A stretch of DNA of 64,000 nt from an uncultured Sphingomonadales bacterium. Its GTDB lineage: Bacteria > Pseudomonadota > Alphaproteobacteria > Sphingomonadales > Sphingomonadaceae. A program made the translations under genes and the position numbers. The DNA is taken from the NCBI GenBank assembly GCA_903848655.1, contig CAINGT010000076.1:12426-76425 (forward strand), in the 5' to 3' direction. This document shows, piece after piece, positions 25,406-31,346 of the stretch. How positions within the stretch are numbered: position 1 is the first letter of the stretch; the number at the start of each line of letters is the position of its first letter. The notes beneath the pieces were generated by a model that was given only the letters and a program-made list of their open reading frames with translations, made no database searches and was not told where the DNA came from.

Positions 25406-27760
25406 TCATGTCCGCAGCCGTTCGATCCCTTGCGCCAGCGCGACATACAATTTGCCCATGTCCGATGACAGCAGTGTCACCCCCACGGCATTGCCGTCGC
25501 GGGTGGCCAGCAACTGGCGCAGCATCGCTTCGAAATCGTGGATATAGCGGTTGACGTGGATGCGGAATTCTTCGTCCGCCTCATAGTGGTGCTGCACCGC
25601 CCGTGCATCGGCGCTATCGAGCAGCGATACCGCCCGGCGGGTGAAAATCCCGCGTTCACCGCGCAGATAAGCTGCCCACGCGCTTTCCGACACTTCGGCG
25701 GACAAAATGCGGCTGATGTCGATGGCGATGGAATTGAGGCTTTCGGTAATCAGCGCGGTGCGTCGGGCGAAATCGCTGTCGATGTGGTCTTCGGCACGAT
25801 CACGCAACTGGCTGACACGGATTTCCAGATTGCCCGCCAGTTCATCGATCCCTGCGAGTTGATCGCGCAAGTGCCCTGCTGTGTCGCGCGCGGCGCGCGA
25901 GGCACTGTCCATCGCCGATTCCAGCCGGTTGACCAGCTTCGCGCCCTCGCCTTGGGCGACTTGCGCCAGCGCGGCGCTCGCTTCATCGCCAAACCGCGCG
26001 GCAATCGCGCTGATCTGTGCGGCTGCTGCCTCGCCCAGTTCGCCCGTGGCGGTGCGTGCGGCCTGCTCCAATTCGGCAATCGCCGCTGCCAGCCGTGCCT
26101 CGATGGCTTCACCCAATGCATCGCTGTCGGTCCGCGCCGCGCGCAAGGCAACGCGCATCGCTGCCAGCCGCGCTTCCTGTTCGGCCGTATGCGCCAGCAC
26201 GGTGGCGTTAATCGTGGCAATTTCGTCAAGCACGGTGCCAAGCCGGTTGCGCGACTGATCGACCGTGCCCGACAATGCGGCACCGGCATCGCCCGCCTCG
26301 CGCAAGGTGTCGCGCAAACCGACCACGCGCTGGTCCACATCGCCAAGCCCGGCAATCGCGCTGCGCAATGCTTCGGGCAACTGGGTGCGGGTGTGATCGC
26401 TGGCCGCTTCGACCAGTTCGAGCAGACGCGCTGCCGCAGCGGTCAAATTTGCCACGCTGGCCCCGCTGTCGCCCAGCACGGTGCGCGCGCTGTCAAGCCG
26501 CGCCGTCAGAGTGGCCAACGCGTCGTCAAGCTGCGCAGCGGTGCGCGAACTTTCGTCGGCGGTGCCCGCGATTGTGCTGGCAAAGCCGGCGACGCGGTGT
26601 TCAAGGCTGGCGCAAACAGCGGCAAGCTGCGCAATCGCTTCGCGCTGGCGTTCGTGCTGGGCATCGAGCGTGGCATCGATCTGCCCCGCTTCTTCGCGCA
26701 GCGCACGGCCCAGCGCCCCGGCGCTGGCTTCAAAGCGGTTCAGGCGATCCCCGGCGGCGGTGATAAGGTGCTCCTGATCGCGCCCGATATCCGCAACCGC
26801 GCGCGCCAGATCTGCCGCCAGCGCTTCGGCGCGCTCGCGGATTTTCGCCAGCGCAGCGGCTTCTTCGCGATCGAGCCGCTCTCGCTGGTCGGCCAGCGTC
26901 ATGATTACCGCCTCCAGCCGCGATTCGCCTGCCATGCCGATACGTTCCCCGGCGCGGGCAAAAGCGGAGACCGCAATTTCGACCTGGCTGTAAAGTTCGG
27001 TAACTTTGCGCGCGCTTGATGCGCTGGAACTGTCGAGCCGGTTGAATGCGGCGATCAACGCGGCGAGTTGCCCGTCGGCGGTGCGCCCGGCATGGGCAAT
27101 CGCATTGGCAAGGTCTTTGGTTGAATTGCTGGCGACCGGCAGATGCGCACGCAATGCGGTGATATTGTCCAGCGCGGTCGCCGCGACGATGCCGATATTG
27201 TCAAGATCCTGGCCTTGTCCAGAGATCACCTCTTTCAACCGCTCGGCCGATCCGGCCAGCCGTTCAACCGCCACCCGCCCCAGTGATTCCAGATCACGGC
27301 TTTGCGCGGCGATGAAATCGCGCGCCAGCGACAGCTCGGTGTTCATCGATCGCAGCCGCGCTTCGAGCAGGCGGCTTTCGCCCGAAAGTGCCTGAACAAC
27401 AGCGGCATGGCGGCTGATGTCGCGCAAAGTGTGGCGCGCGATCAGCACTCCCAGCAACACCAGCGCTACCGGCATCGCCCATTGCGCCACCCACTCGACC
27501 AGCGTGTCGGCGTGTAACGGGCCATGTAGTGTCCCGGCTTTGCCCAACGCAAACGCTCCGGTCCAGGCCGCGATCAGCGCAGCGGCCACACCCGGCACGA
27601 TCCAGCGCCGGGCACCGGGCGGATCGAACACCGCTGGCGGTGGCGGGTCGATACTGGTATCGGCATCAGCGGGCGGCTGGCGCCCGGGCGGCTGATCGTC
27701 GGGCAGGTCGGCCTCGACCGGGCTGCCATCAAGCGCGAAAATGCGGGTTCTGCCGTTCAT
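25406..27760 (-). CDS. TipN/GPR(RgsE)-like polar landmark protein: two N-terminal TM helices, a long Ala-rich coiled coil and a conserved C-terminal domain
   Basis: TM segments WIVPGVAAALIAAWTGAFAL and WAMPVALVLLGVLIA. The C-terminus AWAAYLRGERGIFTRR...EEFRIHVNRYIHDFEAML...LSSDMGKLYVALAQ resembles, from memory, the TipN/GPR C-terminal domain. Start set at ATG 27760 (MNGRTRIF). Confidence 0.65.
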   Translation of the reverse strand: MNGRTRIFALDGSPVEADLPDDQPPGRQPPADADTSIDPPPPAVFDPPGARRWIVPGVAAALIAAWTGAFALGKAGTLHGPLHADTLVEWVAQWAMPVALVLLGVLIARHTLRDISRHAAVVQALSGESRLLEARLRSMNTELSLARDFIAAQSRDLESLGRVAVERLAGSAERLKEVISGQGQDLDNIGIVAATALDNITALRAHLPVASNSTKDLANAIAHAGRTADGQLAALIAAFNRLDSSSASSARKVTELYSQVEIAVSAFARAGERIGMAGESRLEAVIMTLADQRERLDREEAAALAKIRERAEALAADLARAVADIGRDQEHLITAAGDRLNRFEASAGALGRALREEAGQIDATLDAQHERQREAIAQLAAVCASLEHRVAGFASTIAGTADESSRTAAQLDDALATLTARLDSARTVLGDSGASVANLTAAAARLLELVEAASDHTRTQLPEALRSAIAGLGDVDQRVVGLRDTLREAGDAGAALSGTVDQSRNRLGTVLDEIATINATVLAHTAEQEARLAAMRVALRAARTDSDALGEAIEARLAAAIAELEQAARTATGELGEAAAAQISAIAARFGDEASAALAQVAQGEGAKLVNRLESAMDSASRAARDTAGHLRDQLAGIDELAGNLEIRVSQLRDRAEDHIDSDFARRTALITESLNSIAIDISRILSAEVSESAWAAYLRGERGIFTRRAVSLLDSADARAVQHHYEADEEFRIHVNRYIHDFEAMLRQLLATRDGNAVGVTLLSSDMGKLYVALAQGIERLRT

Positions 27761-27793
27761 GCGCTCTACTCTAGCACGGTTTTTGACGGCTGT

Positions 27794-27808
27794 GTAACCC
27801 TGCCTTAA
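27794..27808 (-). promoter_or_regulatory. CtrA-like binding site TTAA-GGCAGGG-TTAC
   Basis: The plus strand reads GTAA-CCCTGCC-TTAA, a 1-mismatch match to TTAA-N7-TTAA, 34 nt upstream of the tipN-like start. A GANTC site lies nearby at 27845-27849. Confidence 0.6.
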
Positions 27809-27895
27809 CCATAGGCGGACCACGCCGCGATGACCGGCAGCGGGGATTCGGTGCTGGCCGGGTCAACCGGCAGGGATTGAAGGAGAACAGGTTCG

Positions 27896-29104
27896 TTGCG
27901 CGTCGCCTTGCTGTCCCTGACTGATGCCGTTGCGGGCGCACCGCAAGGCTTGCGCGGCGATCTGACGATCGGCGGACGATCACTGGCGCGCCATCAATTG
28001 GGGCTGGTGCTGGCGCTGGGGTGCACGCGGGTGGTGCTGGTAACCGAAACGCTGACGAGCGGCGTGATCGCCCTGCAACGCGCAACAGAGGCGGCGGGCG
28101 CGCGGTTTCATGCGATTGCCACAGCCCATGCACTGCTTCCGCTGGTCAACGCTGATGATGATCTGATCGTGCTGGCCGATGACCTGCTCGCGCTGCCCGA
28201 AATCGCGCTGGCGCAGTTGGGCGAAGCACGCGGCGTGCTGGCGCTGCCGGTTGAAGCGGGCCTTGCCGCCGGATTTGAACGTATCGATATCAATCATGCC
28301 AGCGCCGGGGCGATGCGCCTGCCGGGTCGGGTGGTGGCAGGATTGGGCGATCTTCCGCCCGAATGGAATGCCCCCGCCGCACTGCTGCGGCTGGCGGTCC
28401 AGGCGCGGGTGCCGCTGCACCTGTTGCCCGAAGCGGTGGCCGCCGACGGGCGCTGGGCGCTGGTTCGCAGCGAAGCCGAAGCGCAGCGGATCGAGCCGGT
28501 GTGGCTGCACTTGCACACCGACAGCGCGCGCGGGCGCAGCCCGGGTGAATGGATCGCCGCACGCATCGTGCAAGCGGCGGGCCCCGCGTTGCTCCATGCC
28601 GGAACCCGGCCATGGGTCGTGGCACTGGGCGGGGTGGTGGCGCTGCTGCTCGCGCTCGGATCGGGTTGGTTCGGCTGGCGCACCCCCGGTTTCGTGCTGC
28701 TTGCGCTCGCCTGGGTGTTGGCGAGGGTGGCCACGCTGGTATCGCGGATTGAACAGCAATCGCTGCTTGAACCGGGCCGGTCTGCCCCCGTCGGGCAGTG
28801 GTTCGAACTGATGATCGATGGGGCCTTCGTCGTGCTGGCGGTGTGGCGCAGCCAGCTTTCCGATGTGCCGGTGGTGGTCCGCTGGTTTGCCCCGGTCATG
28901 GCGATGTTGCTGCTGCACTGGTTGCCCCGCGTGCTGCCCGGCGGTCGCTGGACATGGTGGCTGCGCGATCGGCTGGTGGCCGGGGCGGCGCTGGCGGTGA
29001 CCAGCGCTTTGCTGCCGTTTGACGTGTGCTTGCGCGCTGGCGCGCTTGCGCTGGTGATCTGGGCGATGACGATGACCCCGGCGCAGGCGGGTGGCGCGCG
29101 ATGA
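27896..29104 (+). CDS. Membrane protein of unknown function; nucleotidyltransferase-like N-terminus and CDP-alcohol phosphotransferase-like TM C-terminus, both apparently degenerate
   Basis: TTG start after an AAGGAG SD. N-terminal LTIGGRSLARHQLGLVLALGCTRVVLV; about 5-6 C-terminal hydrophobic helices containing G-QWF-E-LMI-D. ATGA overlap with the next gene. Confidence 0.6.
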   Translation: MRVALLSLTDAVAGAPQGLRGDLTIGGRSLARHQLGLVLALGCTRVVLVTETLTSGVIALQRATEAAGARFHAIATAHALLPLVNADDDLIVLADDLLALPEIALAQLGEARGVLALPVEAGLAAGFERIDINHASAGAMRLPGRVVAGLGDLPPEWNAPAALLRLAVQARVPLHLLPEAVAADGRWALVRSEAEAQRIEPVWLHLHTDSARGRSPGEWIAARIVQAAGPALLHAGTRPWVVALGGVVALLLALGSGWFGWRTPGFVLLALAWVLARVATLVSRIEQQSLLEPGRSAPVGQWFELMIDGAFVVLAVWRSQLSDVPVVVRWFAPVMAMLLLHWLPRVLPGGRWTWWLRDRLVAGAALAVTSALLPFDVCLRAGALALVIWAMTMTPAQAGGAR

Positions 29105-29982
29105 TCCACGCTGATTTTGCCCCCGGTGCGGCGGCGAGGCCCGCCGACGATATCCCGCTGCAACTGGCACGCGCCGATGATCGCCTCGCTGCTATCGCCA
29201 GCGCGCTGGAACAGCATGTCGTGCTTGGCCCCGCGCGGCTGCTCGATGACGAAACGGTAATCCGCGCGCGCGCGCTGGCGGGGGATCTGGCCCGCCAACT
29301 GGCCGATAGCGGACACGTGATGATCGACCGGGTACGCGATCTGTTGGCCGCCAATCGCCCGGTCATGGCGCATCTTCATGCGCTCGTGGTCGAATGGCGG
29401 GTGGCGAGCGCGCTGGCCGAACAGCGCGCGCTTGACCCGGTGTTGCCACCGCTGTGGCAACGGCGGCTCGATCCCGAGGTGGTCGGCAATGATGCCGCGA
29501 TGCTGACCACTGCGCTCGTCACCGCGCAAACCCGCATGGGCGAAGCGCTGCGACAGATGCGGCTGCCATTGGCCGAATTGCCCGGCGATCTGCACCATTT
29601 GGCGCAGCAGATTGCCGCTGCGGCGGGTGGCGATCCTGCCTCGGCGCACCGTTCGCCCGACGCCCCGGCGACACGGCTTGTGCTGCTTGAACGCGCGCTG
29701 GCGGGGCTTGGAAGCGACACGCTGCGGGCGTTGCGCATCGACGAGGCCGGTCTGGCGTTGTTTTTGACCGCATTGGCGGGTGCCGCCGGGTGTTCGCGCG
29801 AAACGGTGGCACTGGCCATGGCCGAAGATACCCCGATCAGGCTCGCGTTGCTGCTGCGCGCTGCCGGATTGCCGCGCGATCACGCCGCGCGGCAATTGCT
29901 GGCCATCCGTCCTGATGCCGATCCCGCGCTGGTCGCCGGTGTCGCCGATGGCACTGCTGCCGAACAGGTGCTGGGGCGATGA
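29101..29982 (+). CDS. DUF2336-like all-helical protein
   Basis: Start at ATG 29101 (MIHADF), coupled by ATGA overlaps on both sides. The C-terminal LFLTALAGAAGCSRETVALAM...RLALLLRAAGL resembles DUF2336 from memory. Confidence 0.55.
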   Translation: MIHADFAPGAAARPADDIPLQLARADDRLAAIASALEQHVVLGPARLLDDETVIRARALAGDLARQLADSGHVMIDRVRDLLAANRPVMAHLHALVVEWRVASALAEQRALDPVLPPLWQRRLDPEVVGNDAAMLTTALVTAQTRMGEALRQMRLPLAELPGDLHHLAQQIAAAAGGDPASAHRSPDAPATRLVLLERALAGLGSDTLRALRIDEAGLALFLTALAGAAGCSRETVALAMAEDTPIRLALLLRAAGLPRDHAARQLLAIRPDADPALVAGVADGTAAEQVLGR

Positions 29983-31346
29983 GCGCGCCAGCGCCCGTGC
30001 AAGGCCGGTGCGATCTGGCAGACCGGCTGGTCGAGGCGGATGTCACGCTGGCCGCATTGCATCAGCGCTGTGGCGGTGATCCCGCAGGGGTGCTGGCGGT
30101 GCCCGCGCTGCTGACCTTGGTGCGCCAGACCCGCGTTGCCGGAGTGGCACAAATGCGCCGTATCCGCGCGGTCGATGATGGCAAACCGATTACCTTTCTG
30201 GCCGAAGCCACGCCCGACCCACACGGCACCCGCATCGCGTTGACGCAGTGGCGGCTGGCGGGTGATACGCTGGGCGAACTCGATACGGCAGACGCAGTGC
30301 TGAACCAGATTGCCGCCGTCCATGGGCTGCTCGACAGCGAACAGCGCGTGCTGGCGGTCGATCTGCGCGAAGCGGCGGGCGACGATCCGGCGCTCGCCGC
30401 GCTTGCCGATCGGTGGCGCGCGGCGCGCCAGCCGTGGCACGCTGCGGTTGATCTGATCGGCGTGGCAACGCACCACCCGCTGCACTGGCGGATGCTGGAT
30501 GATGTGGCGTTTCGGCTGGCGGGATCGCCAACGGTGTGGCGCGCCCGGCTGCTGCCCAGGAGCGATGCCGGGTTTGACCTGCTGGTCTTGCCCGATGCAG
30601 CGGCACCGATGATCGCCATTACCGCTCCGGCACCGGCACTCGCCAGTGACAGTCGGCTGATCGGGCGCGATCTGGCCCCGGCCTTGCGGCAGCCGGTGCG
30701 CCGCATCATGGCGAGCGCCGAAATCATCCGCACCCGGCTGATTGGTCCATTGGCCGACGATTATGCCATGTATGCCGCCGATATTGCCGAAGCGGCGCGC
30801 CACTTGCTGGCGCTGGTCGAAGACATGGCCGATCTCGACGCGGTCGAATCGCCCGACTTCATGCCCGCGCGCGATGCCATCGATTGTGCCGATTGCGCCC
30901 GCCGCGCCGCCGCGATGCTGACAATCCGCGCCGCCGAACGCGATATCACGCTGGTGGTCCCGCCCATGCCCAGCCCGGTTCCGGCCATCGGCGAAGCACG
31001 CCGGGTGATGCAGATCCTGCTCAACCTGGTGACCAATGCGATCCGTTACAGCCCGGCGCAATCGACCATTACCATGACGTGCGGCAGCGATGGCGCGCAC
31101 GCATGGATTGCCGTCGCCGATCAAGGTCCGGGGTTGAGCGACGAACAGGCGATCAGCGTGTTCAACAAGTTCGAACGGCTGGGCCGCAGCGGTGATGGCG
31201 GGGCTGGGCTGGGGCTCTATATCGCGCGGCGGCTGGCGCGCGCGATGCGCGGTGATCTGGTCGTCGCCGGGCGCGGGCCGAACCTTGCGTCCGATGCGGG
31301 CGCAAGGTTCGTGCTGACGCTTCCCGCGCGCTTACCGTTGCGCTAG
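29979..31346 (+). CDS. Soluble histidine-kinase-like protein lacking the phospho-acceptor His (pseudokinase)
   Basis: HATPase boxes are intact ([25 protein letters not shown]). The DHp helix reads DLAPALRQP where SHELRTP is expected, followed by [31 protein letters not shown] as in PleC/DivJ-type DHp domains. Confidence 0.85.

Follow-up and report, generated by a model that had tools for sequence, protein, structure and literature searches.

What is left for a histidine kinase to do once the residue that it phosphorylates has gone? The question is raised by protein A, which is encoded at positions 29979-31346 of a 64,000-nucleotide stretch of DNA from an uncultured sphingomonad of the family Sphingomonadaceae (GenBank assembly GCA_903848655.1, contig CAINGT010000076.1; this whole stretch is called the window below). 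A is a relative of histidine kinases in which a proline occupies the site of the phospho-accepting histidine. Pseudo-histidine kinases are, to our knowledge, known mainly from one case, DivL, a protein of about 770 amino acids (aa) that has tyrosine in place of the histidine, several PAS domains, and a membrane segment at its N terminus. Here we describe what alignment and genome comparison indicate to be a second, independent pseudo-histidine kinase in DivL's network, fixed across a large and ecologically important family. We further describe a protein of the same genome, B, whose defect is the mirror image of that in A, and we weigh a tentative proposal that the two make up one split kinase for the regulator DivK against the nearly as likely alternative that A, like DivL, signals without catalysis.

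An ATP-binding domain kept and a histidine lost

The first-pass annotation, made from the sequence alone, had read the H-box of A as LAPALRQP with proline at the phospho-histidine position, had called the N, G1, F and G2 boxes intact and had seen no evident transmembrane segment; all of this is borne out. When a profile of 107 members of the A family was aligned to solved kinases (best E 5.6e-34, to an ordinary kinase), Pro234 fell under the phospho-histidine of 'nMSHEIRTPLNG', and Ala235 occupied the place of the catalytic Glu/Asp one residue on (position H+1, counted from the histidine column). The Pfam family HATPase_c matches A at E 3.6e-21, and HisKA reaches 25.4 bits against a cut-off of 26.9, in a match that begins at profile position 13, past the histidine. 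No transmembrane segment was found in A, the highest 19-residue Kyte-Doolittle mean being 1.42, within the Pro-rich linker. The protein is soluble, with a PAS-PAS-DHp-CA architecture, where DHp is the dimerization and histidine phosphotransfer domain and CA the catalytic and ATP-binding domain. Its AlphaFold model has a mean predicted local distance difference test (pLDDT) score of 86 and comprises two PAS-like alpha/beta domains, a disordered linker at residues 209-222, a helical hairpin and the CA domain; its fold neighbours are PAS-kinases and the cores of NifL, RetS and DivL. A single copy of the gene is present in the genome, whose assembly amounts to 2.95 Mb in 145 contigs. Having lost the phospho-accepting histidine, A is, as far as sequence can tell, unable to autophosphorylate at the canonical site.

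The loss is shared by the relatives of A. We followed the site through 240 homologs, namely the 120 closest to A and 120 from a search started with a Sphingomonas ortholog. Proline fills the histidine column in all 120 of the closest set (50-66% identity; those named are Novosphingobium), and the counts over the full 240 are P 120, R 83, Q 18, A 8, K 6, H 3, S 1 and G 1. Position H+1 is Ala in 238 of them, and H+4 varies (Q 119, T 44, A 25, G 16, L 14, S 10, N 5). Residues N349, N353, R356, D381, G383, G385, F395, F398, R400, G408, G410 and G412, which lie in the four boxes, are each kept in 238-240 of the 240 (all but R356 and G385 in 239-240), and the ATP-binding and catalytic residues are retained too in divergent His-less orthologs. 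CA and DHp are the best-conserved parts of the protein, with mean majority-residue frequencies of 0.72 and 0.69, as compared with 0.53 and 0.43 for the two PAS-like domains and 0.28 for the linker; 13 of the 65 DHp columns are invariant among 30 genera-level orthologs.

We searched 1.84 billion representative proteins exhaustively, which gave 231 at E <= 1e-30. Among the 150 best of these, every member of 300-520 aa (about 130 clusters) lacks histidine in the column, where the counts are P 47, R 18, S 13, Q 10, E 10, A 8, T 8 and D 5, with others besides. Three Sphingomonas sequences that do bear the histidine read 'DHALR', still without an acidic H+1, and look like drift at an unconstrained site, because Arg and Gln codons are one step from those of His. 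A sequencing error was considered and rejected, since the CCG codon is two base changes from either histidine codon and a single base-call error cannot explain Pro234. Strain-specific decay, for which the first-pass annotation had left room, is rejected as well: the His-less state is conserved across the family, and an intact H-box survives in just 4 of the 61 genera sampled. By these alignments the loss of histidine in A is ancient and is fixed in most Sphingomonadaceae.

A separate observation concerns the nearest proteins of another kind. The closest His-bearing matches in the global, representative library are proteins of 860-1420 aa with two complete HisKA H-boxes, that is, tandem kinase cores (P0353, P0354, P0366-P0372, P0377, P0380, P0382 and P0385).

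If the usual acceptor has gone, another might have taken its place. The sole invariant histidine of A is His275 (240 of 240 homologs), in DHp helix 2, which by helix register would lie about one turn from the former acceptor. The same residue is present in intact relatives ('AGRHLL', 'AGHHLL'), and the kinase HK853 carries the same helix-2 histidine ('NHL'), which we take not to be an acceptor there. Being shared with His-bearing relatives, His275 is ancestral and probably structural, not compensatory, and autophosphorylation on it is the least probable of the explanations considered here.

Intact relatives and the PleC/DivJ type

In a first sample of genomes, full-length orthologs of A were found in 37 of 38 from the window's family; the nine other families of the order gave matches to the kinase core alone, and these are ordinary kinases. 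Kinases of the sister families carry 'MSHELKTPLNAIIGFA....FG.LDDRYKAYARDIEKAGRHLLALINDLLD', align without gaps to the DHp of A and share with it the signature 'G.L...Y..YA.DI..AGRHLL.L..D'. The PAS domain that precedes their DHp is homologous to the second PAS-like domain of A, in which Sphingomonas orthologs have precomputed PAS_4/PAS matches in Pfam. The best NCBIfam model for A is DivJ (NF050805), at 100 bits against a cut-off of 1000, hence below it. The PleC/DivJ-like type that had been assigned to the hairpin on first reading is thus upheld by a loop and helix-2 signature common to A and the intact kinases of sister families; on this likeness, the DHp of A is of PleC/DivJ type and descended from such kinases.

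The ancestral state itself is preserved in the second sample, of 61 genera. A canonical H-box (SHELRTPLNAIIGF) is intact in the orthologs of four genera only, G156, G159, G185 and G166 (loci L149, L150, L157 and L160), where it reads 'SHE(L/F)RTPLNAIIGFAEAM'. The proteins of G166 and G185 were read over the DHp-CA part, and those of G156 and G159 were checked full length: a hidden Markov model (HMM) of the A family aligns to them over positions 5-450 of 454 (E about 1e-86), and the gene upstream of them is the same as that upstream of A, which together make them orthologs that preserve the ancestral state. By this comparison the ancestor of A was an intact histidine kinase of PleC/DivJ type, which four deep genera still hold, and since the intact form survives in these few genera the transition is open to direct comparison. 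Relative to the intact orthologs, A lacks the phospho-accepting histidine and the acidic residue beside it. It has also lost the helical linker from PAS to DHp, which in the G156 and G159 proteins is about 35 residues long and in A gives way to a Pro/Ala-rich linker. The regulator-contact positions of helix 1 have also changed, from the ancestral NA..GF (H+7/8, H+11/12) to xR..AN in A (RIIANAET). The orthologs of G165 and G172 are His-less yet carry the intact-type 'AEAM', not the 'ANAETI' of mainstream A; this suggests that the histidine was lost more than once, in a family tree whose root is not fixed.

In one further genus (G179; locus L152, G179:C4:107000-120968), the syntenic slot adjoining gltA holds only a 247-aa open frame of A, consisting of part of the DHp, with helix 1 shortened, and the CA domain, which we read as a truncated variant or else a pseudogene.

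A six-frame scan of the window's genome with an HMM of the A core turned up DivL itself, encoded on contig C51: it has 785 aa, several PAS regions and the Tyr-type sequence 'MSYEFRTPL'. Its best solved relative is Caulobacter DivL (4q20, E 2e-35; next match 7e-23), and when read by eye its sequence has no recognisable F box between G1 and G2. The idea that A is simply the sphingomonad DivL was therefore dropped, a true DivL being present elsewhere in the genome; on these matches A is a second pseudokinase, independent of DivL, as the first-pass annotation had proposed. After A, the next-best match to the A core in the scan is a TorS-like hybrid kinase, and the scan found no intact PleC/DivJ-type kinase in the genome. 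DivK is present (best solved relative 1m5t, E 1.2e-36; next PleD, 3e-22), its gene lying about 200 bp from a contig end, and so are ChpT (PF10090, E 1.2e-32) and, from the sequence read by eye, a CpdR-like regulator. For the Sphingomonadales in general, Brilli et al. (2010) reported 'degeneration or complete loss' of DivJ-PleC-DivK (PMC2877005).

Protein B, DivK and the choice of mechanism

One other protein of the genome has the DHp type of A. B reads 'LHELRTPINAIQGFAELIQSQVLGPTPHQYRSLAASIAADAARML' at this site, and the damage lies in its CA region, where the N-box Asn, DxGxG and GxGxG are all absent; Pfam finds HisKA only. Its orthologs keep the histidine, Glu at H+1, Thr at H+4 and the contact residues NA..GF in 32 of 33 cases (LHELRTPxNAIxGF, HExxT). 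In the first samples B was full-length in 21 of 21 and 19 of 19 genomes of the family (40/40), and no full-length B was found in those samples outside it. The profiles of A and B align over 130 columns, from the final PAS strands through the DHp (probability 98.7, E 3e-16); the two DHp domains align without gaps, each with only about 10 residues before the histidine position. B-like proteins coexist with an intact A ortholog in G159, G166 and G185, so B is older than the loss of histidine from A. The identification of B as ChpT was rejected, ChpT being separately present in the genome, and the neighbourhood of B (an Lrp-type regulator and metabolic genes) is uninformative.

The comparison with B bears on another proposal of the first-pass annotation, that A serves as a dedicated phosphatase or phosphate sink, for DivK or another regulator. 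Such a role would fit the co-occurrence of A with DivK described below, and some kinases, EnvZ among them, keep phosphatase activity without the histidine. With Ala at H+1 and a variable H+4, however, the HisKA phosphatase motif E/DxxT/N is absent from A, and its regulator-contact residues differ from the ancestral set; it is B, not A, that keeps HExxT and NA..GF. The first of these differences disfavours a phosphatase and the second makes a response-regulator sink doubtful, and we regard a role of either kind as very unlikely.

The distribution of the proteins connects A with DivK. DivK is single-copy in 53 of the 61 sampled genera, and all 8 genera without it also lack A and B; A was scored as absent there because the best matches to it are ordinary His-bearing kinases. 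All three proteins were searched for in 54 genomes: 11 genera have neither A nor B, most others have both, and discordant cases are few. G169, G186 and G194 have DivK and neither A nor B. The discordant cases are G154 (B without A), G179 (the 247-aa frame described above), G202 (below) and G137, in whose draft assembly A was not found. In G202 (L144, G202:C17:583000-586200) A is absent and the H-box of B reads 'VDDLRGPL', with Asp for His, which may represent decay of B after the loss of A, a single case. On a tree of RpoC the genomes lacking A and B are scattered, requiring at least four to five independent losses of A, and B shifts in the same direction as A in 2-4 contrasts and in the opposite direction in none. 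The association of A with B across genomes is suggestive, and from co-occurrence we infer a place for A on the DivK branch of the network that governs cell cycle and polarity in alphaproteobacteria. The link to DivK raised by the first-pass annotation stands to this extent, as a matter of co-occurrence; B, the three-gene operon and the intact orthologs go beyond what that annotation had noticed. The 'degeneration' reported for Sphingomonadales (PMC2877005) here takes a definite form, in which DivK is kept, mostly along with two half-disabled kinase relatives.

We tentatively propose that A and B constitute a split class I histidine kinase for DivK, replacing the missing DivJ/PleC in most Sphingomonadaceae; we place this reading first while granting it somewhat less than an even chance. 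The division would have come about, and this we hold equally tentatively, when point decay disabled complementary parts of two full-length PAS-DHp-CA relatives. A would be the ATP-binding half of a two-protein kinase and B the half that carries the acceptor histidine and the phosphatase motif. The two would associate through their equally short DHp hairpins, the CA domain of A would phosphorylate the histidine of B in trans, and the phosphoryl group would pass from B~P to DivK, from which free B may also remove it. The PAS-like domains of A, together with the membrane protein and the all-alpha protein of its operon, would probably set where or when the complex forms. We count in favour of a split kinase the strict conservation of the ATP and Mg ligands and of the catalytic Arg400 in A, together with the complementary defect of B, the alignment of the A and B profiles, the presence of DivK in a genome in which no intact PleC/DivJ-type kinase was found, the phyletic pattern with its scattered losses, and the case of G202.

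A number of observations weigh against this proposal. A and B are never neighbours in the genomes examined, and the conserved operon partners of A are the genes mem402 and mid (described below), not B. In a tree of the PAS end, DHp and CA (64 sequences), A and B are each monophyletic with support of 100, but the backbone is unresolved and the tree does not recover the two as sisters, so that a family-specific duplication is neither shown nor excluded. One genome (G154) has B without A. The co-loss of A and B is not significant (sign test p 0.125-0.5, with 4-5 independent contrasts), and it would be equally expected from a merely shared pathway. The persistence of DivK in three genomes without A and B implies some other input to DivK, or another role for it. 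The helix-1 surface of A (xR..AN), set against that of B (NA..GF), could equally mean a different partner. Finally, DivL offers an example of a His-less kinase with recognisable ATP-binding boxes that works without catalysis.

This last point leads to an alternative that we rank just below the split kinase and regard as nearly as likely. A would be a non-catalytic pseudokinase in the manner of DivL, in which nucleotide is a structural or regulatory ligand, a partner or signal is sensed through the PAS-like domains, and the partner is changed by contact without phosphoryl transfer; the partner sensed could be DivK, B, DivL or CckA. The precedent is established within the same network, and in alignment DivL also keeps the N, G1 and G2 motifs. 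The loss of the helical PAS-DHp linker and the rebuilt helix-1 contacts fit a departure from ordinary kinase signalling, a shared pathway explains the co-occurrence with DivK and B equally well, and the non-phosphorylating NifL and RetS are among the fold neighbours of A. On the other hand, a DivL-like role leaves unexplained the invariant Arg400 and the Mg and ATP ligands, which are kept also in seemingly independent His-less lineages. The genome's own DivL appears to lack the F box. A DivL-like role would also leave DivK without an evident phosphodonor where no intact PleC/DivJ-type kinase exists, and a histidine column that ranges from Arg/Lys to Glu/Asp/Pro is hard to square with specific recognition of phospho-Asp at that site. 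Should the split kinase formed by A and B prove real, we know of no earlier natural example in the DHp/CA class, and it would answer the question of who phosphorylates DivK in Sphingomonadaceae.

The operon and known systems

Three genes form the operon in which A comes last, and they are translationally coupled, their ATGA overlaps lying at 29101 and 29979 (Table 1). The first gene, mem402, has a TTG start and a stop codon overlapped by the ATG of the next gene; a faint match to a MobA-like NTP-transferase (NTP_transf_3, E 0.004) appears in one of its orthologs only. The second gene, mid, shows a weak likeness to DUF2336 (E <= 0.01 in 2 of 86 members, and 6e-5 in one Sphingomonas ortholog). 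Its product gives a confident AlphaFold model (pLDDT 89, predicted template modelling score 0.83) that resembles no solved structure in Foldseek (best E 0.33), and may thus represent an uncharacterised fold family tied to the kinase lineage of A. Homology of the mid product to the N-terminal domain of B was tried and rejected (hhalign probability 0.1). In every genus examined, whether its kinase is intact or not, mid immediately precedes A, and the order mem402, mid and A, followed by the convergent genes gltA, gltX and comEC, extends from Novosphingobium-like genera to a genus with 42% guanine-plus-cytosine (GC) content. Upstream of the operon the window has a near-match to a CtrA box, GTAA-N7-TTAA at -91, and no CtrA box or GANTC site is conserved there in eight orthologous loci.

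A partnership of this kind invites the thought that A is an active kinase for some other substrate, for example Ser, Thr, Tyr or His on the mid product or the membrane protein. There are precedents for such non-canonical substrates in branched-chain ketoacid dehydrogenase kinase and in the anti-sigma kinases of GHKL fold, the CA domain of A is intact, and the coupled three-gene operon is conserved from the low-GC genus to Novosphingobium. The fact that mid stays directly upstream even beside an intact kinase can be read in two ways: we count it in favour of such a substrate, but an operon that exists beside a His-bearing kinase also means that the partnership predates the loss of histidine, so that no new chemistry is called for. 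We identified no acceptor motif, and the DHp is among the most conserved parts of A, whereas a GHKL Ser kinase needs no DHp. We consider a substrate of this sort unlikely.

On the other side of the operon, and adjoining it in most genera, lies the gene for an 805-aa protein with N-terminal membrane segments and a very long coiled coil, an architecture like that of TipN. By tblastn its C-terminal domain of about 190 aa is the sole conserved part, and a CtrA-like half-site near its start shows no conservation in orthologous loci.

Table 1. Positions of the genes and protein features discussed. Plain numbers refer to the window; G000 is the window's own genome, and C numbers are its contigs.
Feature	Position	Strand	Description or basis
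805-aa coiled-coil protein	25406-27823	-	
mem402, first operon gene, 402 aa	27896..29104	+	cytoplasmic N-terminal domain (~230 aa), then C-terminal multi-helix membrane domain
mid, second operon gene, 293 aa from ATG at 29101	29101..29982	+	all-alpha protein
A ORF (open reading frame)	29979..31346	+	455 aa; ORF list
PAS-like domain 1 (aa 7-93), N-terminal	29997..30257	+	AlphaFold secondary structure, pLDDT mostly >90; conservation 0.53
PAS-like domain 2 (aa 103-205)	30285..30593	+	AlphaFold model
Pro/Ala-rich flexible linker (aa 206-225)	30594..30653	+	pLDDT <50 at 209-222; conservation 0.28
DHp helical hairpin, PleC/DivJ type (aa 226-290; helices 226-253, 259-290)	30654..30848	+	AlphaFold, profile alignment
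Degenerate H-box LAPALRQP (residues 232-239)	30672..30695	+	Pro234 in phospho-His column
Pro234 codon CCG	30678-30680	+	sequence
His275, DHp helix 2	30801-30803	+	only invariant His of A
CA (HATPase_c) domain (aa 299-450)	30873..31328	+	Pfam HATPase_c, AlphaFold
N box (345-357)	31011-31049	+	sequence
G1 box DQGPG (381-385)	31119-31133	+	sequence
F box FNKFER (395-400)	31161-31178	+	sequence
G2 box GGAGLGL (407-413)	31197-31217	+	sequence
B, 584 aa	G000:C43:271-2025	-	N-terminal helical domain, PAS-like domain, canonical H-box LHELRTPINAIQGF, degenerate CA
DivK	C133:10470-10805		
CpdR-like regulator and ChpT	C142:4630-4956, C6:44345-44722		

The searchable literature on pseudo-histidine kinases in sphingomonads, DUF2336 and SpmY yielded no description of the A family, its intact orthologs or B, and A is best placed by comparison with systems of known behaviour. 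With DivJ, PleC and PdhS it shares the DHp loop and helix-2 signature 'GP(L)xxxYxxYAxDIxxAGRHLLxLIxDxxD..ES' and its co-occurrence with DivK; unlike them, it has no histidine, no acidic H+1 and no membrane anchor, and its contact residues are changed. Like Caulobacter crescentus DivL (4q20), A is an alphaproteobacterial HisKA/HATPase_c protein without the phospho-histidine, with recognisable ATP-binding motifs and PAS domains upstream of the DHp, and it would belong to the DivK/CckA network. It differs in belonging to a separate lineage (4q20 matches at E 3.2e-21, whereas the best ordinary kinase reaches 5.6e-34), in a hypervariable histidine column as opposed to a fixed Tyr, in Ala as opposed to Glu at H+1, and in being a soluble protein of 455 aa without the helical PAS-DHp linker.

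NifL of Azotobacter vinelandii and RetS of Pseudomonas aeruginosa, which are found among both the fold neighbours and the sequence matches of A, are PAS-DHp-GHKL or DHp-CA proteins that signal by contact; RetS works by pairing with the kinase GacS. They act in pathways unrelated to that of A, have no specific sequence relationship to it and still carry the histidine in the H-box. B in turn resembles ChpT in having a DHp with its histidine beside a CA-like domain unable to bind ATP, and differs from it in its 584 aa, its N-terminal helical domain, its PAS-like domain and its HisKA-type H-box.

For the proposed pairing of A with B, the closest likeness is to CheA3 and CheA4 of Rhodobacter sphaeroides, a tested split kinase (PMC3591291), and it is a likeness of proposed logic only: a catalytic domain without an acceptor histidine would act with a histidine and phosphatase protein without a catalytic domain, and neither protein would autophosphorylate alone. 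The CheA proteins have the architecture of their own class (P1-P5), not that of the DHp/CA class I, and they are split by missing domains, whereas A and B each keep both domains, one of them inactivated by point decay. HisKA proteins that lack a HATPase domain but carry HE/DxxN/T have been proposed as candidates for split kinases, and theory holds that a split kinase of such a kind can give switch-like behaviour (PMC3591291).

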